This document shows positions 6,620 to 25,988 of a stretch of DNA of 64,000 nucleotides, piece after piece; within the stretch, counting starts at the first letter, position 1, and every line of letters begins with the position of its first letter. A program made the position numbers and the translations under genes. Location: UHGV virus genome UHGV-0214148, one strand, 5' to 3'. The notes beneath the pieces are model-generated. The model ran no database searches. It worked only from the letters and a program-made list of their open reading frames with translations, and was not told the origin of the DNA. This DNA is from a virus.

Positions 6620-6632
6620 GGAGAATTTTTTG

Positions 6633-9600: not shown

Positions 9601-10814
9601 CTGCTGTTACGGATATTCCGTTAGTGATGGAGGAGTCTGGGGAAACGGCAGTGGCCGCAACGTTTAAGGATGTGTTGTTCAACGGTGAGGAAACCAACCC
9701 CGCGACGCTCGACTTGATAGGTTGGGGTGCCAGCCGAGATAAAATTTCTGCAAACCATGCACCTCGTGGCATGATTCGGTATCGTTACAACGTAAACACA
9801 CGGGTATTACGTTTAGCACTGACGTTCTCACAGTTCGGAACGACAACAGTTAAACATCGACAGCTGGAGATTCAATTCCCGTTCGATTTAGTGGATTATT
9901 TCACTGGCGACGGTGTGGGATTGTCGTTTAAAGAACTGTCTGCGAAATGTCGTGTAACGATTAGTCACGCGCTGATTGATCCGGCTACGAGTAACGTCGA
10001 CATTGATAAGTACCATTACTTACGTTCGTTGTTCGAATCGTATCTGGATTCTTCCGTTGGGTATTTGGCTGATACCAAAGACGTTGATTTTAGTCAGTCT
10101 GTGATTGACCCTGCGACTTACGAGGTTAGTCAAAAATACCGCGTTACAGAAAGCATCGCGCTGCCAACCGGCCAGGGAAGTGTTGCTGTTTCCCATGACG
10201 GCCAGTTGCCTGCGCAGTTCTTTGACCGTAAGCTGTCTCGTGGTGCCTTGATGGCCAAGAAAGGTGAACTCAACGCTTCCTGGAATAATGAGTGGAGCAC
10301 GACTAAAGCTGCTGCGAGTCGTTATCGCCATAAACTCATTCTACGCTTTGCACAAGGTGCTGATAAACAGCAGTATCGCGTTGCAAAAGTGGCCGGGACG
10401 GTGAAGTCTAACTGGCCGGGTAAAGTGATTATTGGTGATGCCGGGAAGGACCCGTATGTATCGGCTATTGATAGCGTATCTTTTGCGCTTTCGACCGCCT
10501 CTGATACAGGTAAAGCGATTACTCTTACGCCAAAGGACTTACGTGTAGGTCAGGACATTTATATTGTCTTAGAACCACCCGGCAATAATCCAGAAGGTTA
10601 TGAACTTAACTTCACTTGTTCGTTAGATGTCACTGACGAGAAAAGTGTCCGTCAAGATCAACTCAATGCACAGAGTTTCGAACTCCGTAGCGGCGAAAGT
10701 CAGTTCTTAATGGAGAAACGCAACCCGTACCACATCACGAGTAAAGCGTGGAAGTGGATTTTGGCTGTACTGAAACGTGAACTTAACGGGAAGCAGTTAG
10801 GGGATCGTACTTAG
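6633..10814 (+). CDS. tail fibre protein (1393 aa)
   Basis: AAGGAG SD 9 nt upstream of ATG 6633 (track start 6630 is TTG); N-terminal PFF...GVDY motif; fibre motif ADLGLGQADNTADLDKPLSTELTKAV..GHHH; Gly-rich linker. Confidence 0.7.
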   Translation: MKAYPYDPRGTKTENHFLEERIIGSENNNDRVVILDHRPFFEDLVVRQPGSTTPLSRGVDYELQYQLTELDDSVAANVYCGVHLINPSIKGIVTFEGQMLGGTFYDPFVDILDELVKYLNNPVSADWLLLEGRPSLYPATPAATSWADLLNKKYLASAVHDIELKTDDANQLIKDKLAEVKALVAALGKEIEAFNYPAHIAETNPHQTTSAQISAHPVNLKTPDTFMAYGLKLKALTDELKAFRLPQSVIDTYISHWISSEVRGVFNCTVSGNRAQFRSKNGESEIIFANDGFTLKSNGSVVLAVGHLEGTGAGRYINWRAGKNTLRIESTGDALGMNKLTLNGNPLLTTTALMEYQQDPDAGGSGGGDPDDSKVYIEGRNGISFTGKGSRTDPIVGTIDPTKATTAEKGVVKLKTGKGTETVGVAATPASLTPYSTDLSGYVAKTTMINGKPMNDGSRTITKADLGLGQADNTADLDKPLSTELTKAVSGLADVGHHHDWSELGIYKASQSVYGIGRYATNQNGLVENRAVVPNILKELSARLSVVAAAIANAKEGTVTDFAAVKGADWRFNSQGTAISVQDLKYFYLLDGTKGDSTVTGAIDLQTTPMFNWFSPNNQLELTWATGKVSNGTGINWTGIEEPPLMGFQSVPVGKTATQMGDQSVVTVLAKTRVKAYQPKLWVYAAGGGPVTVYINGIQAASGESPLVAVYETSSDVENYTVAVKAECSDTTKSAAVQFEVYDGDYPVYFSGPETRVELLQEFVTTHVGVRHYLYVNMLTGSLYSRAEPIQSIAVDPERGYIGYVDIVPGQSYANKTVGFETTFDFGKSAEVSEHISTRKAHGLSAVDWALTDNPRLPLLNRAIAEPRACIFRKPLATATGDVFHLVSRGLYTYAHNQNVKSSLQYVVIPEGATPYCWFTPFNPKENNAPTFEGSFAFDVDDVGGTQALAAAPDLVLCTSTQGSSVKRRYLRIDLTTKTCKLGIGSRSDSAVTDIPLVMEESGETAVAATFKDVLFNGEETNPATLDLIGWGASRDKISANHAPRGMIRYRYNVNTRVLRLALTFSQFGTTTVKHRQLEIQFPFDLVDYFTGDGVGLSFKELSAKCRVTISHALIDPATSNVDIDKYHYLRSLFESYLDSSVGYLADTKDVDFSQSVIDPATYEVSQKYRVTESIALPTGQGSVAVSHDGQLPAQFFDRKLSRGALMAKKGELNASWNNEWSTTKAAASRYRHKLILRFAQGADKQQYRVAKVAGTVKSNWPGKVIIGDAGKDPYVSAIDSVSFALSTASDTGKAITLTPKDLRVGQDIYIVLEPPGNNPEGYELNFTCSLDVTDEKSVRQDQLNAQSFELRSGESQFLMEKRNPYHITSKAWKWILAVLKRELNGKQLGDRT

Positions 10815-10852
10815 GACAGACTGCCTGCGGGCAGTTGTGTGTCCGTAGGTAA

Positions 10853-10889
10853 CCCCTCCCTGTAATGGGGAGGGGTATCCATTTTATTT
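10853..10889 (+). terminator. intrinsic terminator
   Basis: Stem CCCCTCCC/GGGAGGGG (10853-10860/10868-10875) followed by a T-rich tract; a second short hairpin sits at 10820-10835. Confidence 0.6.
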
Positions 10890-10908
10890 AAAAGTAGGAG
10901 TCTTTACG

Positions 10909-13900
10909 ATGCCGAGAGAAGACGCGGCGCAGTTTAACGGTACGCTAAGCACAGCGACGTACCCTAACCGATTTAACGTGGTCATTCCGCCTGAAGGACC
11001 TTTTTATCGTATCGGATTAAAACTCACAGTAGCCGACGATACCGCGCCTAACGGACGTCGTACTCTGATTGAGGGGCTGGACTACTATTTAGGCTATTAC
11101 TTTAAAGAACTCGCCGAAGCTGAACAAGATCAGATTTATGGCGGGTTTATGTTGCTTACTGCAACAGAAATCGAATATGAGATTTTAGGGGTAGCACGGC
11201 AGTATCGTGTACCGCAATCTGAAATCGGGAAGTTCTTAGTTCGTACTGACCTGAAAGACCCACGTAACGTGGACTGGTCGGAGTTAATGGCGTACGCGCC
11301 GGTTATTCAACCAATCGACCCCCCTGCTAACTTAGAAGAAGCTATTCTGAGGGACGAGGTCGTTAAAGCGTTGAACGATATCCGCAAGAAAATCATTCAG
11401 CGTTCAACAGAGTTAGATGCGGCCTTCACCGAAGTCACTAACCTTATTTACGAGAACGGTAAAAAGATTTTCGATGAAGAACTATACCAACACCACCTTA
11501 ATCCTAACGCTCACCAGTATACGACCAATGACGTTGGGGCCCTTCCGGTTTTAGGACGTGCTGTTGACGCTACAAAAGCGTTTGGGTTGACAATTGACCA
11601 ACTGGCTACGCTGATGGGTTCGGCGGGCATTGAGCAATCAGACGTTGAACAGCTAATGGGTGAAGCCCTCGGTACCGTTTACGGTCGTTGGGGCACCACG
11701 AACGGTAACGAACTAACGTTTAAAACACCGGGTGGACACATCATCAGCATCCGTGGTGATAAGTGGTTAATTACCTCCCCGCAACCGTTAGTGATTAAAG
11801 CAGACCAAGACAACAACGAATCCGGTTTGGCGGTTGAGTTTAGTGCGGGACTGAATACGCTTTGGGTACACTCTGGGTCAGAACAGGATGTATTAGCACC
11901 GGTCTATAACTCTGTGTATCTCGTTACACCAGAAATGGTGAACATGTACCTGACGTCTGTAACGTTACTTGAAGCGAATGCCTATTTCAAACCGTCAGAC
12001 ACCGTAAAACCGTACGGTACAGCGAAGCAGTCTAACCCACTAACGTTGAACGCGAATATTCCCACAGCAACCGAGTCGGTTTATGGGGTGTTTTCGATTA
12101 CGAATATCGCAACCTCTGTAGCGCTAGGCACTGCTATTTCCCAAAAGGCTGTGACCGAGTTAAAAAACCGGTTGGACTTGTACGTTGACGACGACTACAC
12201 GGTTAACGGTAGAGGGTTTGTTAAGACAGGCGACAACATGGTGTTAACCTTAACGAAGGCCGATTTCGGTATCGATAAGATGAATAACACCACACCCATC
12301 GCTAAACCGGTAACAAAAGCATTAGCGAACGTGCTGAAAAATAAAAGTTTGAAGGTACACACGCACACTACCGCTGATTTGGATAATGTCCCGATTGGTA
12401 GCGCAACAGTGGACGGTATCTTACAGCTGTGGGATGCGATTGATACCACGAATGATAAAGCCGTCACATCACGCCAAGGGTGGCTGTTCGCAAAAGAGAT
12501 TAAGAAGGTCTCTGATAAACTGAATACCCTCTTGCCCGCATGGACAACGGCCGGGAGCAAATATACCAACAATTCGATATTGCCGATCTTGTCGATGGGT
12601 AATTACGAAGGTTATGGTAAAAACATGGATGCGCTCCAGATGGTTATAGGGGTACAACAAGGTAAGCTTTATGCTTTAATTAGCTCTAAATCCGCCCTTC
12701 CGGGAACCGAGGGTATTTATTACGCCGTTGCCGGGTTAAAAAACGACAAAAGTCTTGGTGAAATTTACAAAACAACGTTCCGTTATAAGCCGAAAGGGTT
12801 AGAGACGAATTATCCTGGGGTGGAACTAAAAGAAATTACCGTTACGGGTACCGAAGCATTTATAGCGAAAGGCAGCGACGATAATTACTATTTAGTTAAA
12901 CTGAACGGTTCAATGGATTACACCAAACATACCGATGTCAGGTTGGTAACTTTCTCAGAATTTGTTTCAGAAACAACATGGGAATTTGTGCCGAATATGT
13001 TCATGGATCGTGTGGTCATAGCCGATAACGGCGTCTATGTTTTGCGTACGATGCTAATGGCCGATCTGAAAAACAATAGTCTGGTGGACTACATTAAGGA
13101 TACTCCGCAACCTATGTTCCGTGTTGGGTTATTGCGACTTAATAAAACCGATCGGTTTGAACAGGTTGATTTAAGCTCTACACGAAAAATCGGTAAGTGT
13201 GCCGATTTGGTTGAACCTGGCGCGTTCGATGTAGATAATCCGAATACGAAGCGTCTTGCCTACTTCACTGCGGAAGGCAAAGCGTTGTGGACAGTGAATT
13301 TACAATTAACTAGAGGGGTGTCAAGATGGATAACGCCCGTTGTTAAGGACGGTAATCTGTTAACCGTCGGCGTGTCTGGCGTTTGTCTTGGTTTTTCTTC
13401 AACGAAAGGTACCACATTCGGGCCATGGAATGGTGCTTATCGTCTCGACCTATTAACCGGGGAGGTTGGGTTAGAGACAACTAACATCTTCCCAATCAAA
13501 ATCGATACTACAGGTTGCTACTTAAAAGACGGAACAAAAATAGAGCTGAAATGGAAATGGGCTACTCGAAGTTCTGGCTATATGGCCGACAATAGAATCT
13601 GTGTCGGTGATATGGTTTATTCTTGCTGCTGTTCGACAGAAAAACAACTTGCACCGTCTCTCCATTACCAGAAACTCCCAGAAGGAGTTAGTTATCTGGA
13701 CTATGTTAAGTTGAGTGCGGGGTATGAGGGGCAATCTACGTTTGAAAATCGGATAAACCCTGTGGTGGGTTCGGTGTGGAAACCGTCTATGACTCTACCA
13801 TTGTTCTTCCCAGGAACAAACAAAGTATGGCTTAAACATCAAAAAACGGCTTATTTCATTGAAGCCGAATATGATAAAGATACGACTTATGGTTATCCTG

Positions 13901-16095
13901 GATACGGCGGGTTTGGACCAACATCCCGCCGTGTTGAAAAAAAAGCGAACGAATACGGCGTATTGACAAATATACCGCTGGTTGTTACGCCAGACATACC
14001 GAAAGGTCTACTAGATGGGGCTTACTTTATCGGTGCTGAAAGTAAACCATGTAAAGTTGTTTACGGTACCACTACGGTGGCTAGTGATCGGTTGTCTATC
14101 GATGCGGCAGAATGGGCGAAGTTGACTAATATTGTTCAGTCCAGCCAGTTCTCTGGGGCTTCTAACGGCAACGCCTATGAGCGGATTAGCGTAGCTAAGA
14201 CCAAAAAGAACAACTACAGTTTGTCCTTTTGGGTGCTTGGTCAAACGATGTCTGGTGGTCCGCTTTGTATCGCGATAGTGAGTCTTATCTATAAAGACAC
14301 TGACGGGGTAAATAAGTTTGCTTTTTACTTCTTTCAGGTAAAACCGACTATAACCAACGGGGTCATAAGGTTCGTTAGTTCGGAAGCGAGAATGATGACG
14401 TTCAGGGAAAAAATGGCCAGTAACGCCATTAATCTCTCACCCACAGCTTTTAATGGTGAACTTAAACAACGCTCCGGTCAAGTTTTCCTTTATTCGCAAG
14501 ACGGACAAAAGTTCAGATTCTCAATACATAACCTGGTTGGCGGGAATCTTGTAGGATCAGAGATTTCTTTTGCTTTTGGGATAAACTTGACTAAAAAAGG
14601 AGAATGGTTTACCGGCGAAATTCATCGGGCGTGGGGCTATACGTATACGCTGAATAATACATCTGAAGTCTATATACCCGATCTCTCGGGCATCGCGCTA
14701 TTGACTTGTAACTCGGAAGATTTAAACGAGTTGTATCTCGGTGGCGAACAGTATAGAATCTCTGATTTGTTTAACAAAAAATATACTGTTATCGATAAGA
14801 TTATTATTGGCGGCGTACAAACACAGAGCGGTTGGAATTTCTATCTGACGGAGGAAACCGAGTTAAGTTTTGGAAATAAAAGATATACCGTTCCAAGATG
14901 GTCCGTTGATTTAAGCGATGAATTCCCGACTAATCACGCTAACCAGACATTCTACGTTTATGCTGAAGTGGTCGGTTCTACTGCCCAATACCGCATCGGT
15001 TTAGAGCAGTTAGCTGATACCTCGTCGAGACTGTTTGTTGGGACAGTAACCACTGATTCGAACCGTATTACGGATATCAGTATCGATAAAGTAAAACGGT
15101 TAGGTCGTGTAAAAGAGCTGGAAAATCATGCCTCGGTTGTTGATCAGCACGATGTGGCGCAGGCGTTCGACAGGAAAACTGGTCCACTATTAACAGTGGT
15201 TAATAAACCCGTTAAAGCCATTACAGCATCTGCGAGCAAGGGTGCTGGGTATGTCGATGGCCAGAAATGGAATACGTTGTCCGGGATTGCAACGCGGCCC
15301 AGGTTGCCGGTACAGGAAACCTATTCAGGTTATAAAAGTATCAGCAGGGTGGCGTATGAGAACTGCGCTGACCAGTTCTGGCAGAAAGCGGTTGCTGCGA
15401 ACGTTGCAGCGGCTACTGCTTCTGAGAACAAACAAGCAGCAACCGCGAACATGAAGTGGCTGGGCGCGTATACGAGACCGACTACCGGTGCGAGTGTGTG
15501 TCTGGTACTAAGTCTACGTGTTAAAGTACCTGGTAATCCCGGCACCGCTAATCGTAGACTGAAAATCAGGCTTGCGGCTCCGACAGGTATAACTGAAGTT
15601 CGTTACGGGTTAAATCAGTCTGGCGGTACGATGGCTGAACAGACAGTAACGTTGACTGCCAACAGTTATCTGGAAAAAGAGCACGCCGGATTTAAGCCAG
15701 CCGAAGAAGTTCGTGTTCATGCTACCTTTGTCATTCCAAAAAATGAATACGAGAGTTACCGTACGAAGTTCGGTGCGGTTCAGTTGATTGACGTTGAATC
15801 GAACACTGTCATTAAACAGACAGATATCGACACACCGTTTTTCGTGTACACCGCCACGGAGCAAGCGGCACAATCTGGTTTGGTGTATAAAGCGGTTAAG
15901 AGTCAGTTTCGTCAACTCCCGGCTCAACCTGTCGTCATTGTAACTGATGGACAGACAGGGACTACGCCACCGGTGAAAACCTCGTTTGCTGACGGGACAT
16001 TAACGGTCTACGTGGCAACCACGTACGACGCGGTTAACCCAGCACAAACACGCGATATCGACAAGCTCCAGTTCAATCTTATGTTTACATCTTAA
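10909..16095 (+). CDS. tail fibre protein (1728 aa)
   Basis: AGGAG SD; N-terminal PPEGPFY...GLDY motif; fibre motif GIDKMNNTTPIAKPVTKAL...KVHTH. Confidence 0.7.
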   Translation: MPREDAAQFNGTLSTATYPNRFNVVIPPEGPFYRIGLKLTVADDTAPNGRRTLIEGLDYYLGYYFKELAEAEQDQIYGGFMLLTATEIEYEILGVARQYRVPQSEIGKFLVRTDLKDPRNVDWSELMAYAPVIQPIDPPANLEEAILRDEVVKALNDIRKKIIQRSTELDAAFTEVTNLIYENGKKIFDEELYQHHLNPNAHQYTTNDVGALPVLGRAVDATKAFGLTIDQLATLMGSAGIEQSDVEQLMGEALGTVYGRWGTTNGNELTFKTPGGHIISIRGDKWLITSPQPLVIKADQDNNESGLAVEFSAGLNTLWVHSGSEQDVLAPVYNSVYLVTPEMVNMYLTSVTLLEANAYFKPSDTVKPYGTAKQSNPLTLNANIPTATESVYGVFSITNIATSVALGTAISQKAVTELKNRLDLYVDDDYTVNGRGFVKTGDNMVLTLTKADFGIDKMNNTTPIAKPVTKALANVLKNKSLKVHTHTTADLDNVPIGSATVDGILQLWDAIDTTNDKAVTSRQGWLFAKEIKKVSDKLNTLLPAWTTAGSKYTNNSILPILSMGNYEGYGKNMDALQMVIGVQQGKLYALISSKSALPGTEGIYYAVAGLKNDKSLGEIYKTTFRYKPKGLETNYPGVELKEITVTGTEAFIAKGSDDNYYLVKLNGSMDYTKHTDVRLVTFSEFVSETTWEFVPNMFMDRVVIADNGVYVLRTMLMADLKNNSLVDYIKDTPQPMFRVGLLRLNKTDRFEQVDLSSTRKIGKCADLVEPGAFDVDNPNTKRLAYFTAEGKALWTVNLQLTRGVSRWITPVVKDGNLLTVGVSGVCLGFSSTKGTTFGPWNGAYRLDLLTGEVGLETTNIFPIKIDTTGCYLKDGTKIELKWKWATRSSGYMADNRICVGDMVYSCCCSTEKQLAPSLHYQKLPEGVSYLDYVKLSAGYEGQSTFENRINPVVGSVWKPSMTLPLFFPGTNKVWLKHQKTAYFIEAEYDKDTTYGYPGYGGFGPTSRRVEKKANEYGVLTNIPLVVTPDIPKGLLDGAYFIGAESKPCKVVYGTTTVASDRLSIDAAEWAKLTNIVQSSQFSGASNGNAYERISVAKTKKNNYSLSFWVLGQTMSGGPLCIAIVSLIYKDTDGVNKFAFYFFQVKPTITNGVIRFVSSEARMMTFREKMASNAINLSPTAFNGELKQRSGQVFLYSQDGQKFRFSIHNLVGGNLVGSEISFAFGINLTKKGEWFTGEIHRAWGYTYTLNNTSEVYIPDLSGIALLTCNSEDLNELYLGGEQYRISDLFNKKYTVIDKIIIGGVQTQSGWNFYLTEETELSFGNKRYTVPRWSVDLSDEFPTNHANQTFYVYAEVVGSTAQYRIGLEQLADTSSRLFVGTVTTDSNRITDISIDKVKRLGRVKELENHASVVDQHDVAQAFDRKTGPLLTVVNKPVKAITASASKGAGYVDGQKWNTLSGIATRPRLPVQETYSGYKSISRVAYENCADQFWQKAVAANVAAATASENKQAATANMKWLGAYTRPTTGASVCLVLSLRVKVPGNPGTANRRLKIRLAAPTGITEVRYGLNQSGGTMAEQTVTLTANSYLEKEHAGFKPAEEVRVHATFVIPKNEYESYRTKFGAVQLIDVESNTVIKQTDIDTPFFVYTATEQAAQSGLVYKAVKSQFRQLPAQPVVIVTDGQTGTTPPVKTSFADGTLTVYVATTYDAVNPAQTRDIDKLQFNLMFTS

Positions 16096-16135
16096 CGCCA
16101 CGGGACAAGGACGTCTCGGATTAAGGAGAGTGGCC

Positions 16136-17335
16136 ATGGCCTCCATTGTATACCAATACCCTTTAGATTTAACGGGAAGCCTAACCTCTAACGCCGTGGA
16201 GCGTCAGGTTACGTTAGGTACAGGTAAAGTTAACCGTGCGTTTGCTTTTCCTGATGGACCGTTTTATGCTGATACGTTCCGCTTGCGGGTTGCTAACCGA
16301 CCCGATGCGACGTATGAGCGCGGAACGGACTATGAGTTGATTTTTGCACACCCGGCTTACGAGAAATTGACGAAGAACCGGGAAGTGGTAATGGCGGTTG
16401 TTGTAACGAACACCGCGATTCCGACCGATATCACGGTATCGGCGCAAGTAGTCGGGGGCCCGCAGTCGGCAAACGTGACTGCGATAGAACAGGCGATTGC
16501 TGAGTTGAATCTCGATAATCGAACTGTTGGCTTTAAAGACTTGCGAAATGTTCCTGATACATTTCCGTCGGCACCGACGTATAAAGACGTCGGCGATATT
16601 TACGGCTTCGAATATATCATTACAGTGCTCGCTGGCATTAAAGATGCGATAACGGCGGGCGATGCTGTACAGCTTGAGAACATCAAAGCGATTCTCGAAA
16701 GCCTGAAAAACGATTTCCTGGACGCACTGAACGCGCACATTAACGCCACGGGTAACGTCCACCATCTGGACATTCATCAGGTTAACGGGTTAACGGAAAC
16801 GGAGATCCGTGCACTGATTCGTGACGTACAGTCTGCCATCGATGCAACGATTGCCGATATCAATGCATTGAAGAAAGCGGACGAAGCGTTAGGAAAACGT
16901 ATTGATGCTGTTGTCAAATCTTTGGAAGCGTGGAACGACCAACTTAACGTCGTTGCACAAAACTACCAGAAAATGGCACTGGCAATGGCGAACCTAAACT
17001 CGTTAGTGTTACAGTTACAGAAAAATATCAACGATCTGAGCACCAAACTCAACCAAGCGATTCAACGTATTGCTGCGTTAGAACAGCGGGGTAATGAGTC
17101 CGATCAGAAAATTGATAAACTGCAACAAAACCTGGATGCGCTTAAACAGCAGGTTAATAATAACACGAACGCAATCAGTCAGGCGAACCAGAACCTGCAA
17201 AACCATATTGCGGCAGATAACCCACACACAGGCTATCTCCACAAGAAATACGGTGGTGTGGTTCAGGCTCCAGTACACGTTAACGCTAACTTGACGTCCC
17301 GTGATGACGTTCAGGCAGAAGCGGGTACGAAATAA
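16136..17335 (+). CDS. short coiled-coil tail-fibre-like protein (399 aa)
   Basis: AAGGAG 7 nt upstream of ATG 16136 (track GTG 16130 is too close to the SD); N-terminal FPDGPFY...GTDY motif; long heptad-like Q/L/N-rich segment. Confidence 0.6.
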   Translation: MASIVYQYPLDLTGSLTSNAVERQVTLGTGKVNRAFAFPDGPFYADTFRLRVANRPDATYERGTDYELIFAHPAYEKLTKNREVVMAVVVTNTAIPTDITVSAQVVGGPQSANVTAIEQAIAELNLDNRTVGFKDLRNVPDTFPSAPTYKDVGDIYGFEYIITVLAGIKDAITAGDAVQLENIKAILESLKNDFLDALNAHINATGNVHHLDIHQVNGLTETEIRALIRDVQSAIDATIADINALKKADEALGKRIDAVVKSLEAWNDQLNVVAQNYQKMALAMANLNSLVLQLQKNINDLSTKLNQAIQRIAALEQRGNESDQKIDKLQQNLDALKQQVNNNTNAISQANQNLQNHIAADNPHTGYLHKKYGGVVQAPVHVNANLTSRDDVQAEAGTK

Positions 17336-17345
17336 CTTTATTACA

Positions 17346-17390
17346 GGAGGAACTATGCTTATGGGCGTAGTCCTCCATTCTTTTTTATTT
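17346..17390 (+). terminator. weak hairpin plus T-tract, possible attenuator
   Basis: GGAGGA...TCCTCC inverted repeat with a large loop followed by CTTTTTTATTTT. Confidence 0.3.
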
Positions 17391-17402
17391 TAAGGATACG
17401 TG

Positions 17403-17798
17403 ATGGCGATCAGTGTTAAAAATGTACGTGACCGAATCACCAACGTAGAGAACCAAATGGCAACTGGCCCACGTGTTGATCCGCAAGTTGCGTCGAAAGC
17501 ACATAATGCCGCCGACACTTTTTCGGGTTGGACGCCAAGTCGGTTAGACTGCGGGGGAAGTTGCAGCTGGACGTGCTCAAACGGCTGTACGCACGGCTGT
17601 ACGAGTTGTTCGGGCACCTGTACGTCAGTATGTGTAGGTAGCTGCTCCTCTGCGTGCGGTAACCAGTGTACTGGATGTAGTTCAACATGTTCCGGCGGCT
17701 GTTCAGGTTGCAGTGGGACCTGTGGGGGTGCTTGCTCGGGCCGTTGTTCTACGGGTTGTTCTGGTGCTTGCTCTGGTGGCTGTTCTGGCCCAACCTAA
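17403..17798 (+). CDS. Cys/Gly/Ser-rich precursor-like protein 1 (131 aa; about 50-aa leader plus 21-Cys core)
   Basis: AGGA 6 nt upstream of ATG 17403; leader ISVKNVRDRI...; core starts DCGGSCSWTCS and continues with Cys every 3-4 residues. Confidence 0.6.
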   Translation: MAISVKNVRDRITNVENQMATGPRVDPQVASKAHNAADTFSGWTPSRLDCGGSCSWTCSNGCTHGCTSCSGTCTSVCVGSCSSACGNQCTGCSSTCSGGCSGCSGTCGGACSGRCSTGCSGACSGGCSGPT

Positions 17799-17808
17799 GA
17801 GGTGAAAA

Positions 17809-18207
17809 ATGGCAATTGGATTACCTGCGCTACAAGCGCGGCTAAATAACATTGACAACACTGCATTGAAGAATACGGGTGCAGTGCAAAACTATATTCG
17901 TGGGAAAGCGACGAACAACGCAGACTTATTCGGTGGACAAGCTCGCAACCATTACGACTGTGGTGGGAGCTGTAGCTGGACCTGTTCGAGCTGTTCTGGT
18001 GGTTGTACAGGGAACGCATCAGGCGGCTGTGGTTCTTCGTGTTCTGCAAACTGTGTATCAGGTTGCAGCGCAGGCTGTAGCGGATGTTCGAATACATGTT
18101 CTGGTGGCTGCTCAGGAAGCTGTACGGGGAGTTGTTCTAACTCGTGTGTGGGAAACTGTTCTTCAGGCTGTTCGGGCAGTTGTTCTGGTGGGTGTTCTGG
18201 GAGGTAA
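17809..18207 (+). CDS. Cys/Gly/Ser-rich precursor-like protein 2 (132 aa; 20-Cys core)
   Basis: GAGGTG SD; same core start HYDCGGSCSWTCS; paralogue of the previous gene. Confidence 0.6.
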   Translation: MAIGLPALQARLNNIDNTALKNTGAVQNYIRGKATNNADLFGGQARNHYDCGGSCSWTCSSCSGGCTGNASGGCGSSCSANCVSGCSAGCSGCSNTCSGGCSGSCTGSCSNSCVGNCSSGCSGSCSGGCSGR

Positions 18208-18209
18208 TT

Positions 18210-18416
18210 GTGATTAGCCTTAAGAACCTTCGTGATCGATTAGTAACAGCGGAAGGGTATATTACGACCGCTAACGCAAACAACTATATTGCAAACCAGG
18301 GCACCGTGTCTTCAACCAATAACCTTGCCGGTTTACCTTTAAGCCATTATAACTGTAACGGCGGATGTAGCTGGTCGTGTAGCGGTAGCTGTAGTAAAGG
18401 TGCGGGGGGAAGGTAA
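18210..18416 (+). CDS. Cys-rich precursor-like protein 3 (68 aa, short core with 5 Cys)
   Basis: GTG 18210 with GGGAGG 5 nt upstream, directly after the previous stop; leader ISLKNLRDRL resembles the leader of peptide 1; core HYNCNGGCSWSCSGSCS. Confidence 0.5.
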   Translation: MISLKNLRDRLVTAEGYITTANANNYIANQGTVSSTNNLAGLPLSHYNCNGGCSWSCSGSCSKGAGGR

Positions 18417-18565
18417 CTAAGCCCTCCAGTGGTAGTATGTCTATTACGCAATAACCGAGTTAATCGTACGGGTTTACTGCTGAGTTTCAAGTTACCGGTA
18501 GGCAATGGCGCGGTGGGTTCTATACCCTGAATGTCCGTTTGACCGTGAAATAATTGGAGCAATCA

Positions 18566-19453
18566 ATGAAGAATGATTTACATTTAGCGTACAAAACAAT
18601 TTTCAATCATCCACTTCACATTTCTTCCCCTGATTCCGTACGTGCACACTTAGCAGATGAAGTTCGTCTGCTGACTCAGTTGCCGGGCGAATGGCCTAAA
18701 GTGCGCGGACGTTTCTTTACCGATCGTAAAAACTATCGTGTAGAAAATACGTTTAAGATTCGTGATCTGACGGCAGAAAGTGTGGTGGTCTTTACCGGTG
18801 ACTCCGAGTTGCGTGGTAAACTGGTTGCGGGTAAATATTTCTTTAGTGACGGGATTTTGAATAACTCCGTAGATATGGAATTGTTCTTTACCCCATTTGA
18901 AGAAATGGGCGCAAAACCGGTTGCCCGTCGTTGGTGGTCACCGGATTACTTAGGCTCGTTCCCGTATTTCTTTACCCTGGTAACACCAGAAACGAAGAAC
19001 TATTTCGATACGGAATCGTATATCGAAATTGAAGGGTACGAAGCGTTAGGGATTAATTGCTTAGCGGATTTAATGGCGTATAGCTATAAGTTCGTGTGGG
19101 ATCGTGAACGTTCCGTGTGGGTTGCCCTGACAGATGAACACGAAATCACAAAACGCATCCGTAAGCCTTGGATGCAGCATTTGATTCAAACACGTGTTGG
19201 CGAGCATCCGTCAACAGAAGCGGATCTGGCAAAACTCGTTAGTTTCTTAATGACGAAAGTCACGTTAACTAACGAAGAGAAAGCAGCAGTGTCGGCGGTG
19301 TTGGACCGTAACGTAACGTTGGCGGATTTAGAACGTTTAAATGTCCGTTATAAAGACCTTAACCGTATTTTGGAAGCGTATAACTCTCCATTCTTGTTAA
19401 CCCCTGGTGCTAACGTAGACGACGATCCTTTGTTCGCCATTGATTATATTTAA
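18566..19453 (+). CDS. hypothetical protein (295 aa) in the radical-SAM cassette
   Basis: GGAG SD upstream of ATG 18566; no recognisable motif; sits between the precursor-like genes and the radical-SAM genes. Confidence 0.55.
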   Translation: MKNDLHLAYKTIFNHPLHISSPDSVRAHLADEVRLLTQLPGEWPKVRGRFFTDRKNYRVENTFKIRDLTAESVVVFTGDSELRGKLVAGKYFFSDGILNNSVDMELFFTPFEEMGAKPVARRWWSPDYLGSFPYFFTLVTPETKNYFDTESYIEIEGYEALGINCLADLMAYSYKFVWDRERSVWVALTDEHEITKRIRKPWMQHLIQTRVGEHPSTEADLAKLVSFLMTKVTLTNEEKAAVSAVLDRNVTLADLERLNVRYKDLNRILEAYNSPFLLTPGANVDDDPLFAIDYI

Positions 19454-19474
19454 AAACGACCGGAGTCACCTGCA

Positions 19475-20398
19475 ATGACAACCAATGCAGAACCAAGGTT
19501 ATCGAATCGTTTATACGATAAACCCACCGTATTGTCCGTAGTCGCTACGTCCAAGTGCAACCTGGATTGTAGCTTCTGCGGTGGAGCCTATTACATGAAT
19601 CGTGAAGATTCTCCGCGAGAGTTTCAACGTGAGCGAATTTTGGAAGCGCTGGAAGCTAATCCAACCATTACCGAAATTCAGTGGACGGGTGGTGAGCCAT
19701 TACTGGCAACCCGTAAAATTGAGGCGTTTGTTGACGAATTAAAAGTGATTCGTCCAGAACTCAAACACCAGTTGTATACCAATGGCTTAAAGATGCGTAA
19801 ATCGCATCTCCCGTTGCTAAAACAGTTTGACAATGTCTACGTTAGCATCGATGGGTTTAAGTCGTCTGAGCGCCCGTTTATGCGCTTTATTGACGAAGGC
19901 TGTTACGAAGCACTGGAAACGATCTACGAGCTGGATAATGTCCAGACTTGGGGTGTCCTGACACGGGACCGTTTAGGGGACAAACGCTGGCACGAAGATA
20001 TTATTCAGCTGCACAGCGCGATTTACCATTACGGTTTCCGTGCAATGACGTTACTCTTAGATGCGAAAATGCCAAAACCTTTATCGCCCGACCACGTCAT
20101 GAACTTTATTTACGGCTACTATCAGGTTCAGGATAACATTGAACGACTGAATGTAGTAAATAGTCGTGAATGCGGCTTTACGGTAAGTAAAGTGTTTGAA
20201 GAAGGGTGTAACGTTTGCAGCGAAAGTCTTTGGATTAATGCAGACGGTGGTGAGCACCAACTCCAGAATGCACCTAACGTTCTGGAATCGGGATGTAACC
20301 AACTGGCCTTCTCTATCGGTGTAGAGGCGTACGAATATATTCGTCGCGTAGTGATGGCAGGGCGTAATAGAGGGGCGGCAAATGAGTCAAGTAAATGA
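19475..20398 (+). CDS. radical SAM enzyme (307 aa)
   Basis: N-terminal CNLDCSFC (CxxxCxxC) cluster and TGGEPLL SAM-binding motif; extra C-terminal cysteines (CNVC...C). Confidence 0.8.
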   Translation: MTTNAEPRLSNRLYDKPTVLSVVATSKCNLDCSFCGGAYYMNREDSPREFQRERILEALEANPTITEIQWTGGEPLLATRKIEAFVDELKVIRPELKHQLYTNGLKMRKSHLPLLKQFDNVYVSIDGFKSSERPFMRFIDEGCYEALETIYELDNVQTWGVLTRDRLGDKRWHEDIIQLHSAIYHYGFRAMTLLLDAKMPKPLSPDHVMNFIYGYYQVQDNIERLNVVNSRECGFTVSKVFEEGCNVCSESLWINADGGEHQLQNAPNVLESGCNQLAFSIGVEAYEYIRRVVMAGRNRGAANESSK

Positions 20399-21704
20399 AT
20401 TCCCTAAGCAGTTAACGTATCAGATCGTAACCAACCTTTCGTGTAACCTGGACTGCGAATATTGTTACGAACGTAAGTACCCGCGTAACAACAAAGCGGC
20501 GGATATTGTTGATTTCTTACACGCCTGTTTTGAACGTGATAAAAACGAACCGAATGTTGAAGTTATTATCGACATTATCGGTGGTGAGCCGTTCATGCAG
20601 CCTAAACTGCTGCTGGCTGCGTTTGAAACCGCTGAGCAGTTGTGTAAAGAACACAACCGACCGTTTATGTTTAGTATCTCCACGAACGGAACGCTGTTAG
20701 ATCGTCCGTTGAACCGTGAGATTGTAGAACGTTGGAAAGACAAACTTTCGGTTGGGGTTTCGATTGACGGCTTACCTGAGTCCCATGACCGTTATCGTAT
20801 CTTCACAACAACACGCCAGGGTTCTTACGAAGCCGCAGTACGTGGCTATAACTACTTAAAAGAGGTTGGCATTGCAGAGCTCGGCGTAAAAGCAACCTTT
20901 ACGTTAGAAACGCTGCCGTTCTATGCTGCGGGGATGAAGTCATTAATTGACATTACTGGCGGTGGGACAATTTCTGGAAACGTAACTTTCGAAGACGTTA
21001 TGCCACGTAGCATGGCGACGTCAATCGCTTTACAGATGATGGATGTGATAGATTACTGGGTTGAGAAAGGATTACACACCAACCCACGTAATATCTTATC
21101 GCACATCATTCCAGAAGGGTTGGATTTCGATACGATTTGGGAACCGAACTGGCGTGACCAGTTACTGTATAATGACACCGTACGGTTGAACCCAGAACGT
21201 TTACGTCCGTTCTGTGGGACGTTAACGCACATGACGTGCTTAGGGTTTGACCGTAAGATCTTTGGCTGTAACCGCTTTATGTCAACGGTAACGTCGCGTT
21301 CTGCGGTGTTTGAGTTGGTAGGTCGGGAATTCGTCAGTCTGGACAACGGTAAATTGTTAGAAGAGATTCAAACGCAATATACCAACTACCCAGAGACCTG
21401 TTTAGGTTGTCCGATGAAACACGCTTGTGGTAGCTGCGCGGCTGCTTCTTACGAGAACGGGGAAGGAACGTTAGAAGACCGTAAAGCGTATCACGCTGAA
21501 CGACGTCAGTGCGGCTGGACGACAGCGAAACTGATGGTGGCGGAATACTGGAAACAGAAGATGGGTACGACGTCAGCAAAAGCGTTCCATGACACGAGCA
21601 TGTGTTATTGCCCACGCTGTGTTCGTGAACGTGCCCAAAAGGAAAAATTATTAAGAGAAGCCAAAGATGAAACCAATTCTGATCAACAATATTACGAAGC
21701 GTAG
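20382..21704 (+). CDS. radical SAM enzyme with SPASM-type C-terminal domain (440 aa)
   Basis: N-terminal CNLDCEYC and GGEPF motifs; C-terminal CLGCPMKHACGSC plus further Cys pairs; start overlaps the upstream gene by 17 nt. Confidence 0.8.
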   Translation: MSQVNEFPKQLTYQIVTNLSCNLDCEYCYERKYPRNNKAADIVDFLHACFERDKNEPNVEVIIDIIGGEPFMQPKLLLAAFETAEQLCKEHNRPFMFSISTNGTLLDRPLNREIVERWKDKLSVGVSIDGLPESHDRYRIFTTTRQGSYEAAVRGYNYLKEVGIAELGVKATFTLETLPFYAAGMKSLIDITGGGTISGNVTFEDVMPRSMATSIALQMMDVIDYWVEKGLHTNPRNILSHIIPEGLDFDTIWEPNWRDQLLYNDTVRLNPERLRPFCGTLTHMTCLGFDRKIFGCNRFMSTVTSRSAVFELVGREFVSLDNGKLLEEIQTQYTNYPETCLGCPMKHACGSCAAASYENGEGTLEDRKAYHAERRQCGWTTAKLMVAEYWKQKMGTTSAKAFHDTSMCYCPRCVRERAQKEKLLREAKDETNSDQQYYEA

Positions 21705-22239
21705 AATTCGACTTCTGGATAAGTTTCTGGAAAACAGTAAGCTATTCGGTTGTTATGTGGTGATTAACGGTGAAGATTTTACCGATGACGTAAAACGCTT
21801 ACTGATTCGTCACGGCGTGACTGTAATCATCCCAATGTACTGCACCGAACTTACTGACCTGTCGGTCGCGGAAATTGAAAAACGTAACCCAGGGTTTGAA
21901 GAACGGGTATTGGATTTCCCACGTCACAAAATTGCGTTTCTACGCCGCTCTTTAAGCGAACCCAGCGCAGAATCTATCACTGTGTTGGCATTGTCCTTCC
22001 CCGGCATTACTATCTTCGCAACACGTAACCCGAACTCACCGATTGATGGGTTTTACGATGAGCGGGAGAAATTTAATAGCGTGATTTTTCCTGAGCTAAC
22101 GCCAGAAGAATGCCAGGGTATCCGTATCGATTGGGAATCTGACTTCGACACAAGATTCCGTCATATCGATTTTGAACTGTTAATCGAATTAGGGTTGATT
22201 AAAGGAGACGATGAATGTCTGCTACTGGTGAAGGCTTAA
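21667..22239 (+). CDS. hypothetical protein (190 aa), translationally coupled to the radical-SAM genes
   Basis: ORF overlaps the upstream gene by 38 nt; no motif recognised. Confidence 0.5.
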   Translation: MKPILINNITKRRIRLLDKFLENSKLFGCYVVINGEDFTDDVKRLLIRHGVTVIIPMYCTELTDLSVAEIEKRNPGFEERVLDFPRHKIAFLRRSLSEPSAESITVLALSFPGITIFATRNPNSPIDGFYDEREKFNSVIFPELTPEECQGIRIDWESDFDTRFRHIDFELLIELGLIKGDDECLLLVKA

Positions 22240-22886
22240 CGAAAGAAGAAATCCGTCGCCGTTATTTTGCGCACGATTTACCGATCGACCGTCATGGTAA
22301 CTACATGGAGAAAATCGGTAGCGAAGATCACGGCCGTACAGGGTTTTGTGCGTTACTGCACTATAAGCTGATTGATGGGATGTCTGATCGCGAAGCATTG
22401 GAACAAATGCGTAACTACGACATGTCTGAAATCGAAGCACGGTTTACGCTACAGAAAGCGAAAGACTTTGTTAACGACACGTTGGGGATTGACCTGGAAG
22501 AAATTCGTGCAGGTTTACGTTCCACGGTGCGGTACATCTTTACCGATGTTCAGAAAATTCTAAGCGCTTTGGAATTCCGTTATCAGGATGCACGCTATGC
22601 TGAGATTCAGGTAGGTGATTTCACTTTCCAGGCAGATGAGAAGTCACAGGTAGCACTGAGTCGTTATATCCAGTCAGAAACTGCGCCAGCGTATTGGTTA
22701 ACGGCTAACAACACCCGTATCGAACCGTTTACGTTAGAACAGTGCAAGACGTTGCTGGCAGCAATCGTTGAGCGTGATCAAAGACTACACCACGCAATGT
22801 CTGAGCAGAAAAGAGAAGTCAGGGCTTGGGCTGAAGCACGTGATTACGATTCGATAAAAGCGTTTGCGTTAGAGCAAGGGCTGTAA
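22215..22886 (+). CDS. hypothetical protein (223 aa)
   Basis: AAAGGAG 7 nt upstream of ATG 22215; overlaps the previous gene by 25 nt; last gene before the bidirectional terminator. Confidence 0.55.
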   Translation: MSATGEGLTKEEIRRRYFAHDLPIDRHGNYMEKIGSEDHGRTGFCALLHYKLIDGMSDREALEQMRNYDMSEIEARFTLQKAKDFVNDTLGIDLEEIRAGLRSTVRYIFTDVQKILSALEFRYQDARYAEIQVGDFTFQADEKSQVALSRYIQSETAPAYWLTANNTRIEPFTLEQCKTLLAAIVERDQRLHHAMSEQKREVRAWAEARDYDSIKAFALEQGL

Positions 22887-22911
22887 TCGACAGCGAAAAA
22901 AAAAAACAGTA

Positions 22912-22951
22912 TACCTACCTCCCGTAATAGGAGGTAGGTATTTTTATTTTT
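22912..22951. terminator. bidirectional intrinsic terminator at the strand switch
   Basis: 11-bp stem TACCTACCTCC/GGAGGTAGGTA, A11 run upstream, T-rich run downstream. Confidence 0.7.
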
Positions 22952-22953
22952 TC

Positions 22954-23484
22954 TTAGGACGTAAAACCGTCCAGCTCACCGTTGGTGGTGGCCAGGTCAA
23001 TACGATTATCAACAACCTTCGGCGTAATTACGAAAGTTGCCATTACACCTGGCTTATAACGGAGGTTCTTTTCAGTAACGGTACACGTTACCGTACGCAG
23101 AGTGACGCTATCGTGTTCGTCTTTCTGGTCTTCGGTGGTGTACTCAACGTCACCAGGTGCGATAGAGTCGTCAGGTTTTACTTTATTGATGTAAAACTGT
23201 AATCGGTCGCGTAGTTCGTTTTCTCCAGTCCAGAGAGCCAAATCGTCCGTTACCTCAATGCGTCCGACAACGCCAGGTTCCAGACGATCGTAATGCAGTT
23301 CGATTGCGCCTTTAAAATTTTCAGACTCTGTACGTGCGGTCATGGTAACTTTGGTATTTTTATCGCCCTTTTCAAGAGCGACAGGTTGACCAAAAGTTAC
23401 CTCTTTATCAGTGACCTGATGCGGTAGCTCTGTGTTAGCAGCATTATAAAGCGCAACTAACATCATCTGGTTAGTAGCTGCCAT
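22954..23484 (-). CDS. hypothetical protein, paralogue family A (176 aa)
   Basis: Shares NFKG..E.HY.RL and TNGELDGFT blocks with 23552..24082. Confidence 0.6.
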   Translation of the reverse strand: MAATNQMMLVALYNAANTELPHQVTDKEVTFGQPVALEKGDKNTKVTMTARTESENFKGAIELHYDRLEPGVVGRIEVTDDLALWTGENELRDRLQFYINKVKPDDSIAPGDVEYTTEDQKDEHDSVTLRTVTCTVTEKNLRYKPGVMATFVITPKVVDNRIDLATTNGELDGFTS

Positions 23485-23551: not shown

Positions 23552-24082
23552 TTACTCTTTAGGCGCTGGTGCGGTGAAGCCATCCAGTTCACCTTCCAAA
23601 CCGTTCAGTGCTACTTTCTCAATAGCTGGAGGGGTAACTTTATACGTCGCAACAGTACCTGGCAGGAACTTCAAGTGGCCAGCCACAACCGTTACCACGT
23701 AAATGGTTTTGCCTTCTTCTTCACGAGAGATAGTTTGCAGGTCGTTTTCACCGAACTCGTCATCGGTGTACCCTTTCTCAGCCATGGCTGCGTTAACTTT
23801 CGCCAGGATTTTCGTCGGTGAATCGAAATCGGTAGTAGGTGCAGTTACTTCAACTTCACCAACGATGTCGCAGGAAAGACGAGTATAGTGGAATTCTTTC
23901 TCGCCTTTGAAGTTCTGGCTTTCTGCCTTGGCGGTCAGAGTAATTTTAGTGTTGCGGCCAGCTTCTCCGGTGAACTCAGCGACAGCACTAAAATTAACAT
24001 CATTTACAGTCAGCTTAGAAGCAGTTTGGTTGTTTTTAGCAATTACAATCTCGATAAGCTGCTGTTGAAAAGTTTTAGCCAT
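23552..24082 (-). CDS. hypothetical protein, paralogue family A (176 aa)
   Basis: Start moved to ATG 24082 (MAKTF...), which has a GAGGT SD and gives the same length as its paralogue; the track start is 24118. Confidence 0.55.
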   Translation of the reverse strand: MAKTFQQQLIEIVIAKNNQTASKLTVNDVNFSAVAEFTGEAGRNTKITLTAKAESQNFKGEKEFHYTRLSCDIVGEVEVTAPTTDFDSPTKILAKVNAAMAEKGYTDDEFGENDLQTISREEEGKTIYVVTVVAGHLKFLPGTVATYKVTPPAIEKVALNGLEGELDGFTAPAPKE

Positions 24083-24222
24083 TGTTTTTACCTCGTAAGT
24101 AGTATGGGTGGTTTGCATAGTATTGTTCGGATTATAGAAGTGTTGTTAATAGTTATGACAGACAGCAGTAAGGGTTGTCTGTAAAATTATTATTTTTTAA
24201 CTTTTTATAGAAGGGTGAAAAC

Positions 24223-24820: not shown

Positions 24821-25336
24821 TTAAATCTCGACTAAGGCGCTCCAATCGATTGGTTTTTGCTTAACAACCTTCACAGTACCTCGATTTGGTGACCAGAAAG
24901 TAATGTTAGGCTGGTTACGAACGTCGATGTGTAACCAACTGATGTCACATTCAATAAAGTGAATGAACGGAAACTCGTCAGGGTTAGCAGCGATATAGTC
25001 GTGGACCTGTTTTACGGTGCTATCCAGCAACGTTGCATCAATGGCGTTACCGAATTTGTGTTGACTTCCTGAATCGGCGTAAAGCTGCAACGCACGTTGT
25101 TTATAACTACCGCCCTTAGGCTTTTCTTGATTAATAAAGAAGTCTAAGGTTCTTAGTCCGCGTTGTTGTGCAGCGGTTGAGTTAATGACCATTCTACCGA
25201 AACGATTACGAATCTGCTGTAGCGAAATCATTAACAACGGATTCATAAACCGAATTGCAGAATCGCCGTATTTGGCAATATAAGACTGTGGTACTAACTC
25301 TTTGAGTTTAAAGTTACTCGGATTTGGATGAAACAT
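24821..25336 (-). CDS. L-alanyl-D-glutamate peptidase-type endolysin (peptidase M15/LAS family)
   Basis: SQHKFGNAIDA (H-x6-D) and WLHID zinc-ligand motifs, as in T5-type endolysins. Confidence 0.6.
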   Translation of the reverse strand: MFHPNPSNFKLKELVPQSYIAKYGDSAIRFMNPLLMISLQQIRNRFGRMVINSTAAQQRGLRTLDFFINQEKPKGGSYKQRALQLYADSGSQHKFGNAIDATLLDSTVKQVHDYIAANPDEFPFIHFIECDISWLHIDVRNQPNITFWSPNRGTVKVVKQKPIDWSALVEI

Positions 25337-25988
25337 CTTCCCTCCCAGACAGAAAAGCCCGTTTGATGTTCAGGTATTTGACATTAACGGGACATTCTGT
25401 GGTGATATCAATACGTTCGTGGTCAGGGATTGCAGGTTCCTTAAACTCGCGAACGAATAAATAGTTTCGATTGTAATCTAACGTACGAAACGCGTTAGTG
25501 CTGTAGGATGGCTTTGCATTAGGATCTGCGTAGGCATCCCAGCCGAATTCAACAACGGCCTTATAAAATGTTTGGCAGATATAAGGCGAGATTTCCAACG
25601 ACTGCATAATACGCAGGAAAGTTAAGTCAGAGAACTCTTTATCGATGAAACGCGAAACGTTACCACCCGGTGTCATGGGATAGCTACGCTCCGTGTTGCA
25701 TTTTTGATAGAGTAAGTCGTGAATACAGGCCGCAGGTGCCCACGGTCCGTCAGGATGGAAAATTCCCTGGAGGTGTTCAGGAATTGACGCTAAATCAGTA
25801 ACGAACCCTTTCGGTGCTGTTAACCACAGTTGTGTGTCAGGCAATACACCCGTTAAATAAACCGCACGGTCTAAGTGTACGTGGTCGTGATATATCTCAC
25901 GTAACGTAAACGGATAATGGTAATCCTCCGTTAATACAAACCACTTATTGTCTAAACGTTTATATTGAAGCTTCTCCATTACCCACAC
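25314..25988 (-). CDS. DUF1353-like protein
   Basis: FVTDLASIP...HD..Y block resembles the DUF1353 signature (recalled from memory). Confidence 0.45.
   Translation of the reverse strand: MWVMEKLQYKRLDNKWFVLTEDYHYPFTLREIYHDHVHLDRAVYLTGVLPDTQLWLTAPKGFVTDLASIPEHLQGIFHPDGPWAPAACIHDLLYQKCNTERSYPMTPGGNVSRFIDKEFSDLTFLRIMQSLEISPYICQTFYKAVVEFGWDAYADPNAKPSYSTNAFRTLDYNRNYLFVREFKEPAIPDHERIDITTECPVNVKYLNIKRAFLSGREDVSSKSE

Follow-up and report, generated by a model that had tools for sequence, protein, structure and literature searches.

To our knowledge, the TIGR04115, TIGR04114 and PF27846 families constitute a curated bioinformatic pairing of a radical S-adenosylmethionine (SAM) enzyme with CXXX-repeat targets, whose chemistry and biology are uncharacterised, and we know of no dedicated radical SAM enzyme described for a virion protein. 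QhpD cross-links cysteines within a small protein subunit that is retained in a larger complex. Virion parts can be stabilised by covalent or metal bonds, as in the isopeptide chainmail of the HK97 capsid and the histidine-metal sites in the tips of the T4 fibres. We analysed a 64,000-nucleotide stretch of the virus genome UHGV-0214148 (hereafter the window), in which eight plus-strand genes between positions 17403 and 22886 encode three cysteine-repeat proteins (A, B and C), a 295-residue accessory protein, two radical SAM enzymes (rSAM1 and rSAM2), a 190-residue protein and a DUF4376 protein. The nearest characterised enzyme to rSAM2 is PapB, from the PapB/PapA (freyrasin) system of Paenibacillus polymyxa, whose auxiliary cluster binds the substrate cysteine and which forms thioethers on repeated CXXXD motifs; it requires a carboxylate acceptor in CXXXD/E and a leader bound by a recognition domain (RRE) for peptides made by ribosomes and modified after translation (RiPPs) (PMC12373016).

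Comparison of this cassette with other phage genomes indicates that it probably serves the post-translational maturation of a Cys-repeat (C-[S/T]-G-x) domain of the tail-fibre apparatus, and that the Cys-repeat proteins are most likely the substrates of both radical SAM enzymes. The repeat proteins are conserved along with the enzymes and the accessory protein, and across phage lineages the module lies within tail-fibre regions. The pairing of radical SAM enzymes with CXXX targets was known already; what appears to be new here is that both enzyme clades occur in tail-fibre modules of phages and that the repeat domain is fused to fibres. Full-text literature searches, which did not cover the original description of the family, returned no description of the module, of its tail-fibre location or of the repeat-fibre fusion. 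By its DNA, the window can be assigned to an SPN3US-like (Seoulvirus) jumbo phage, with ~72% identity to Seoulvirus jumbo phages, Salmonella phage SPN3US among them, and its rSAM2 locus is 100% identical to the IMG/VR contig 3300029126_000001 (L003 in our numbering of compared loci).

A four-gene module, composed of a fibre ending in a Cys-repeat domain, a protein of the 295-residue family, a small radical SAM enzyme and a SPASM-type radical SAM enzyme, recurs in unrelated phage types. Prophage homologs of rSAM2, with 33-40% identity, are found in entirely different architectures. The P2-like prophage of Campylobacter pinnipediorum (L024) harbors a tail-fibre gene (8070-9224; PF12571, E=1.8e-40) with the C-terminus GCNGCSGSCSGSCSSGCTACSGCSGSCSG, followed by genes for a 250-residue protein, the SPASM enzyme and the small enzyme, and then by the sheath gene. 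Downstream of GpJ in the lambda-like prophage of Deferribacter abyssi (L023) lies a gene for a 302-residue protein with HxHDDRYYTExE fibre repeats, then ATNADQLGGQAGSYYRCSDCSWTCSS and 28 cysteines; the stretch after the HxHDDRYYTE-type repeats reads ...KATNADQLGGQAGSYYRCSDCSWTCSS... and leads into the Cys run. Here the order after the fibre is a 250-residue protein, the small enzyme and the SPASM enzyme. The small enzymes of both prophages are homologs of rSAM1, and both 250-residue proteins align with the same segment of the 295-residue protein of the window (E=1e-10 for Deferribacter; 0.024, a weak match, for Campylobacter). The module also occurs in L106, where it follows GpJ and has three radical SAM genes, and in L107, L108, L110 and L037. 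The fusion partner of the Cys-repeat domain is a fibre-repeat protein in L023, L106 and L037 and a PF12571 fibre in L024, and the homologous domains form the C-terminal parts of fibre proteins of 258-568 residues. The coupling to the host-recognition apparatus that had been proposed for the window from its gene order is thus real, and the synteny comparison across phages makes it far more general.

Alignment of the stand-alone jumbo-phage forms with the fibre-fused forms revealed a junction motif, NAxxLxGQxxxxYxCxxxCSWxC, whose G, C, CSW and C-x3-C positions are invariant. As this motif joins the fibre shaft to the Cys-repeat domain in other phages, the C-terminal part of the "leader" of A, B and C corresponds to the junction motif, and the view of the ~50-residue N-terminus as a typical leader did not hold. 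As a separate observation on the enzymes, three radical SAM genes lie in a row in L106 (5306-8134) and two SPASM-like genes are present in L109 (3398-8251), which suggests that the modification chemistry diversifies.

We performed a profile scan of IMG/VR, which yielded 69 loci with rSAM2 relatives of 24-37% identity. A same-strand open reading frame (ORF) with a run of at least nine closely spaced cysteines is found in 63 of the 69, with medians of 34 cysteines, 305 residues and a gap of 963 nucleotides (nt). This ORF is upstream of the rSAM2 relative in 53 loci, and its Cys run is C-terminal in 42, N-terminal in 13 and central in 8. Three of the six loci without such an ORF end at a contig edge. 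Loci of other radical SAM/SPASM families, taken from a profile scan of bacterial genome contigs that matched the N-terminal half only and used purely as a negative control, have a Cys-run ORF within 8 kb in 5 of 67 cases. The TIGR04115 cutoff was passed by 6 of 10 tested relatives from phage contigs (384-497 bits; range of the relatives, 299-497 bits). Genes flanking the sampled loci encode baseplate J/wedge, tail-fibre, tail-collar-fibre and minor-tail proteins. Separately, two loci with remote radical SAM relatives (27% identity; L018 7534-8002 and L019 4069-4540) have two preceding 68-82-residue peptides with a cysteine at every third residue (CxxC period). Their layout appears to be of the classic RiPP type and distinct from the period-4 fibre domains.

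In the window, protein A (131 residues; 17403-17798) comprises a 49-residue N-terminal part that ends in the junction motif and an 83-residue core with 21 cysteines, spaced by 4 residues 17 times and by 3 residues 3 times. Protein B (132 residues; 17809-18207) carries the motif ATNNADLFGGQARNHYDCGGSCSWTCS followed by 20 cysteines, and protein C (68 residues; 18210-18416) consists of the N-terminal part and the junction motif with just 4 cysteines. All three match phrog_6085 (E=1.6e-40, 1.4e-39 and 2.3e-24 for A, B and C, respectively) and have ~48 N-terminal residues (MAIxLKxxRxRL...) in common. Three tandem Cys-rich genes had been described from the sequence; three paralogs are present, but they are not alike, two being long and one short. 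Across 26 distinct jumbo-phage cores, amounting to 1837 residues, the repeat consensus is C-[S/T]-G-[G/S/T], and the pattern is unambiguous, with 85% of 470 intervals between cysteines having a spacing of 4 and 15% a spacing of 3. Cysteine accounts for ~27% of the cores, which have Gly/Ser spacers and contain neither Asp nor Glu. None of the other ORFs on the two strands of the window contains at least nine closely spaced cysteines in a run. Scores against TIGR04114 are 19.4 bits for B and 14.4 for A, with a remaining score of 12.8 (cutoff 20), and a homolog of protein B carries PF27846 (tSAM_targ_Cxxx_rpt).

Both enzymes pass the PF04055 profile (cutoff 29.5 bits), in agreement with their original identification as radical SAM enzymes. 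The small enzyme rSAM1 (307 residues; 19475-20398) has CNLDCSFC (CX3CX2C) and GGEP motifs and matches with E=6e-14 and 53 bits, and the SPASM-type rSAM2 (440 residues; 20382-21704) has CNLDCEYC and matches with E=3.4e-15 and 57 bits. The cysteines of CX3CX2C are invariant in alignments of each. A SPASM-type set in rSAM2, C286-x9-(G295)C296, C340-x2-C343-x5-C349-x2-C352 and C377, is invariant in 20 homologs down to 27% identity, and C278 is nearly so. This set follows the seven-Cys SPASM motif CX9-15GX4C ... CX2CX5CX3C ... C, except that the last spacing is x2 instead of x3. The best NCBIfam match of rSAM2 is the PapB family (E=1.2e-33; 116.8 bits, below the cutoff of 340). TIGR04115 matches with E=6.5e-33 over model positions 3-345 of 359 (114.7 bits, below the cutoff of 350), and the SCIFF and sactipeptide maturase models TIGR03974 and RumMC give 59.5 bits (cutoff 425) and 50.9 bits (cutoff 720), respectively. 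By curated score, rSAM2 thus represents a separate, divergent clade outside TIGR04115, PapB and SCIFF. The original prediction of a RiPP-like pairing of substrate and maturase is upheld, the closest curated families, TIGR04115 and PapB, being peptide maturases. Membership of the sactipeptide, ranthipeptide or SCIFF systems is not, as the curated scores are too low, and a PapB-type assignment also fails on the absent Asp/Glu.

The closest solved structure to rSAM2 by sequence is CteB (5wgg; E=5.8e-14), with residues 19-180 aligned to CteB residues 105-266. The CX3CX2C motif starts at residue 21 and the N-terminal domain of CteB, ~100 residues long, is absent; since rSAM2 begins at CteB residue 105 in the alignment, it is without the N-terminal RRE. 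The sequence neighbours of rSAM2 also include anSME. In rSAM1 a C-terminal Cys triad (C245, C248 and C274) is conserved, and its AlphaFold model (pLDDT 86.3) finds CteB and SuiB as best Foldseek matches, followed by viperin-like enzymes, anSME, DesII and EpeE. Two relatives with 93% identity to the window at rSAM2 harbor a 303-residue paralog of rSAM1 between Cys-repeat genes A and B (L004 4575-5486; also L016), so that these cassettes have three radical SAM genes; this position links the small enzyme with the Cys-repeat genes.

A nucleotide-modification pathway was considered for rSAM1 and rejected: matches to QueE, MoaA, viperin and NrdG cover the generic N-terminal half only and lie far under the cutoffs, and the rSAM1 paralog is embedded among Cys-repeat genes. 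The SPFM Seoulviruses (LR535903-LR535913: SPFM5, 6, 9, 10, 12, 15) behave oddly in searches. Their megablast matches to the cassette consist of tiny pieces only, their radical SAM proteins align to rSAM2 over just 5-17% by BLASTP yet have high HMMER scores, and the SPFM2 annotation names the two enzymes albA and moaA. These oddities may reflect problems of sequence quality or annotation.

The arrangement in the window is reminiscent of TIGR04115 loci in that a radical SAM/SPASM enzyme, which aligns over the whole model, adjoins proteins with a cysteine at every fourth residue; the three CXXX-repeat targets lie 1-3 kb upstream of rSAM2 on the same strand. The window clade differs by the addition of a second, small radical SAM enzyme and of a 250-295-residue accessory protein, both absent at TIGR04115-type loci, and by targets that are proteins of 120-900 residues or fibre domains rather than short peptides. 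The PapB/PapA system, to which the best NCBIfam match points, also has a substrate with repeated C-x-x-x, whereas the system of the window has no Asp/Glu in its cores, no RRE and ~20 repeats as compared to 6. CteB is nearest to rSAM2 by sequence and to rSAM1 by fold, but the curated SCIFF cutoffs are not reached, SCIFF precursors have ~45 residues with six cysteines, and the RRE domain of CteB is missing from rSAM2. QhpD provides a precedent for a structural instead of a secreted product. The HK97 and T4 examples resemble the proposed system in that extra bonds stabilise a virion part, and differ in that those bonds are autocatalytic or metal-mediated.

In this jumbo phage, A, B and the short C, three small proteins that stand alone, carry the domain. 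We propose that rSAM2 and rSAM1, aided by the 295-residue protein, would modify the repeat region in the cytoplasm of the infected cell, an activity suggested by the genomic association. The modification would most likely be Cys-derived thioether cross-linking, as suggested by homology: the nearest characterised enzymes, PapB, CteB and QhpD, all perform this reaction with the substrate cysteine on an auxiliary Fe-S cluster, which makes thioether chemistry probable. As the cores contain no Asp/Glu, the acceptor would not be of the PapB or QhpD type, and may be Ser, Thr, Gly, Asn, Ala or another Cys. The covalently stapled domain, independent of redox state and disulfides, would then stay on the fibres or assemble onto them as a distal or accessory element. 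The product would be neither cleaved nor secreted; the lack of a protease, exporter or RRE, together with the homologous domains found within fibre proteins, makes its retention on the fibres most likely. We speculate that a redox-independent staple would suit phages of gut or anaerobic hosts, where disulfides are unreliable.

Several points weigh against a fibre-maturation module. The proposal comes from comparative genomics alone, from which we infer both the chemistry and the virion location. The jumbo-phage Cys-repeat proteins are separate proteins of 68-132 residues that are not fused to a fibre, which leaves room for a leader-and-core reading in that lineage, and a hairpin at 17346-17391 parts their genes from the fibre-candidate genes. 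The missing Asp/Glu removes the only type of acceptor documented for PapB (PMC12373016). The score of rSAM2 is under the curated cutoffs of both TIGR04115 and PapB, and the SPASM assignment predicted for it stands by its invariant C-terminal Cys set but not by profile, as the Pfam SPASM family PF13186 has no match at E<=0.1 in rSAM1 or rSAM2. No fold relative was found for the 295-residue accessory protein, which thus has no known fold. Finally, the survey of flanking genes covers ~13 of the 69 loci.

In a classical RiPP pathway, the ~48-residue N-termini of A, B and C would be leaders, the cores would be modified, the leaders cut, and lysis would free the products, which would serve as a toxin, signal or anti-defence factor. 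The gene grammar, with radical SAM/SPASM maturases behind tandem small precursors, matches such a pathway, the best curated matches are RiPP maturases, a hairpin parts the cassette from the fibre genes, and at the remote loci L018 and L019 short Cys-repeat peptides of 68-82 residues lie directly upstream of a radical SAM gene. However, searches of Pfam, NCBIfam and PHROGs found no protease, exporter or RRE in the cassette, and rSAM2 is without the ~100-residue N-terminal domain of CteB. Moreover, the related Cys-repeat domains are C-terminal parts of fibres of 258-568 residues, the "leader" holds the fibre junction motif, and the module lies inside late structural operons of several phage types. 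We thus regard this pathway as unlikely. A RiPP pathway in the strict sense is likewise disfavored by the lack of any peptidase or transporter family among the eight cassette proteins in the same three databases; among the roles suggested in the original prediction, cross-linked peptides decorating the fibres fit best, and a secreted toxin or an anti-defence factor found no support.

Two further explanations keep the fibre domain and change its chemistry or its fate. The Cys-repeat proteins could bind metal (metallothionein-like or Fe-S) or be disulfide-rich, with the radical SAM enzymes performing another reaction, such as anSME-like Cys/Ser oxidation, EpeE-like epimerisation or new C-C/C-S chemistry. 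A content of ~27% Cys with Gly/Ser spacers does resemble metal-binding proteins, anSME and EpeE are structural neighbours of rSAM1 with anSME also a sequence neighbour of rSAM2, the Asp/Glu acceptor is absent, and two different radical SAM enzymes imply two reactions. We nevertheless find this explanation, which differs from a thioether-stapled fibre domain in chemistry alone, improbable: the family similarity of rSAM2 is strongest to the thioether-forming PapB, the CXXX-repeat family, SCIFF and QhpD, and extracellular disulfides or metal sites have no need of cytoplasmic radical enzymes. The domain could also be an assembly tag, akin to an intramolecular chaperone for fibre trimerisation, that is later removed and absent from mature virions. 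C-terminal chaperone domains cleaved after folding are, as is generally known, common in phage fibres, the cassette encodes a DUF4376 protein with weak matches to tail-fibre families, and paralog C consists of little beyond the junction motif. For such removal, neither a protease domain nor an autocleavage motif was found, it is difficult to see why radical SAM enzymes would be spent on a disposable domain, and some gut-phage proteins have their Cys run at the N-terminus (13) or in the middle (8), with further domains after it, which makes a disposable tag highly unlikely.

Extending the proposed fibre-maturation module, it is conceivable, though we hold it only tentatively, that the whole CXXX-repeat radical SAM-target family is a phage tail-fibre maturation system. 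The modification would then be a ladder of ~20-60 cross-links, possibly between the chains of a trimer, giving a stapled distal element proof against redox change and proteases, and the jumbo-phage version would have split the domain into subunits and added a second radical SAM enzyme and a protein of new fold. Were this wider proposal true, RiPP-type radical chemistry would be seen for the first time on a structural protein of a virion. The narrower proposal, if true, would introduce into virion assembly the new principle of a fibre domain modified by dedicated radical SAM enzymes, tail fibres being what decides host range, and would be a new natural use of RiPP-type enzymology on proteins instead of peptides. 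It would also give the widespread TIGR04115/TIGR04114/PF27846 family a biological role and account for the radical SAM genes in structural modules of many gut-phage, prophage and jumbo-phage genomes. Fibre swapping in phage engineering could fail without the maturase genes, and the enzymes may offer biotechnology acceptor chemistries not limited to the carboxylate that PapB requires.

The Cys-rich ORFs are genuine genes, as seen from their conservation in ~62 cultured jumbo phages, their purifying selection and their ribosome-binding sites. A, B and C are each preceded by a good site. Their N-terminus occurs in 62 of 50,697 phage records, and rSAM2 in 62 cultured jumbo phages, the listed records of the two largely coinciding. 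Orthologs are present in all the SPN3US-like jumbo phages examined, whose hosts are Salmonella, Escherichia, Proteus, Erwinia and Cronobacter, with dN of 0.05-0.39, saturated synonymous sites and, where computable, dN/dS of 0.06-0.24, indicating purifying selection. The type of paralog C (N-terminal part and junction motif, with 2-4 Cys) is kept in jumbo phages and in the distant contig L110 (8373-8582); this short protein might be a cap, a primer or a regulator.

These ORFs are evidently overlooked by gene callers or called in the wrong frame. The SPN3US annotation (L001, NC_027402) places gp166 (ACQ60_gp100, 11426-11761) in the +1 frame over the counterpart of ORF B and omits A and C; the corrected ORFs are 10950-11342 (A), 11353-11757 (B) and 11773-11979 (C). 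Antisense ORFs are annotated over A and B in Erwinia phage pEa_SNUABM_29, and a protein search with the N-terminal 82 residues of B returned one match only. Being misframed or unannotated, the SPN3US proteins could not have been detected by the published virion proteomics (PMC5694885). Tryptic peptides of the corrected ORFs are VQIVEANMATGPR and IDAQVASK for A, and LNTIDANALK, NTTNVQNYIR and ATNNADLFAGQGR for B. SPN3US is a tractable system, with amber mutants and deep proteomics, in which the annotation error has so far hidden the substrates.

All the cassette elements described in the original prediction were found in place, including the gene overlaps of 17, 38 and 25 nt, recomputed from the coordinates, and the strong bidirectional terminator. 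The latter is an intrinsic-terminator-like hairpin that ends the unit on both strands (22911-22941), with a stem of 12-13 bp and T-runs on both strands. The terminator-like hairpin with a U-run between the fourth fibre-candidate gene and the Cys-repeat genes (17346-17391, plus strand) has a folding energy of -21.4 kcal/mol (z=-4.6; 0 of 200 shuffles as stable). ORF C and the gene for the 295-residue protein are separated by ~137 noncoding nt (18417-18553), as compared to 22 nt in SPN3US. The fold of this spacer is not significant (z=+0.48), and Rfam has zero matches over 17200-23100.

Four large plus-strand genes upstream of the cassette are syntenic homologs of SPN3US gp170 to gp167, in that order. 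Candidate 1 (1440 residues; 2297-6619), identified by ORF and synteny, corresponds to gp170, candidate 2 (1394 residues; 6630-10814) to gp169 and candidate 3 (1728 residues; 10909-16095) to gp168. The fourth gene encodes a 401-residue virion protein (16130-17335) homologous to gp167, whose C-terminal half is a long coiled coil and whose Pfam matches are of coiled-coil type only. In SPN3US, gp167-170 are virion proteins, none of them assigned to the head; gp168-170 are "baseplate/tail fiber candidates", gp167 is an abundant non-head virion protein and gp169 belongs to paralog family C (PMC5694885). The four genes, named tail-fibre genes in the original prediction, are thus homologs of non-head virion proteins and only baseplate/tail-fibre candidates by homology, their identity as fibres being putative. 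Candidates 2 and 3 (6630-16095) are paralogs with 24% identity over 499 residues by BLASTP (E=2e-19), confined to the N-terminal ~500 residues and followed by complete divergence, which fits a common attachment domain with distinct distal parts.

The remaining cassette proteins are the accessory protein (295 residues; 18566-19453), a homolog of SPN3US gp165 that is kept with the radical SAM pair, the 190-residue protein (21667-22239; gp162 homolog; phrog_7988) and the DUF4376 protein (223 residues; 22215-22886; gp161 homolog; PF14301, E=4.8e-11). Searches of all eight cassette proteins against Pfam, NCBIfam and PHROGs gave these three no function beyond family membership. The DUF4376 protein has weak PHROG matches to tail-fibre and tail families and may act as a factor in fibre assembly; L107 likewise has a DUF4376 gene near its radical SAM pair. 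A homolog of the 190-residue protein outside the jumbo group was found only in L110. Both proteins were considered as core parts of the module and rejected, being absent from most of its other instances. The proteins gp161-165 are missing from the 86-protein SPN3US virion proteome, in which gp167-173 were detected; judged by these homologs, neither the enzymes nor the accessory protein forms part of the virion.

Beyond the cassette, two tandem DUF7941 paralogs on the minus strand (22954-23484 and 23552-24118) converge on the bidirectional terminator. One of them corresponds by synteny to SPN3US gp160, a member of paralog family B that ranks among the most abundant proteins of the head. A DUF1353 protein is encoded on the minus strand at 25314-25988, ~2.4 kb downstream of the cassette, and in the Campylobacter P2-like prophage a DUF1353 gene (12068-12433) directly follows the radical SAM pair. 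The occurrence of this gene near both cassettes may be a coincidence or may point to a further associated component.

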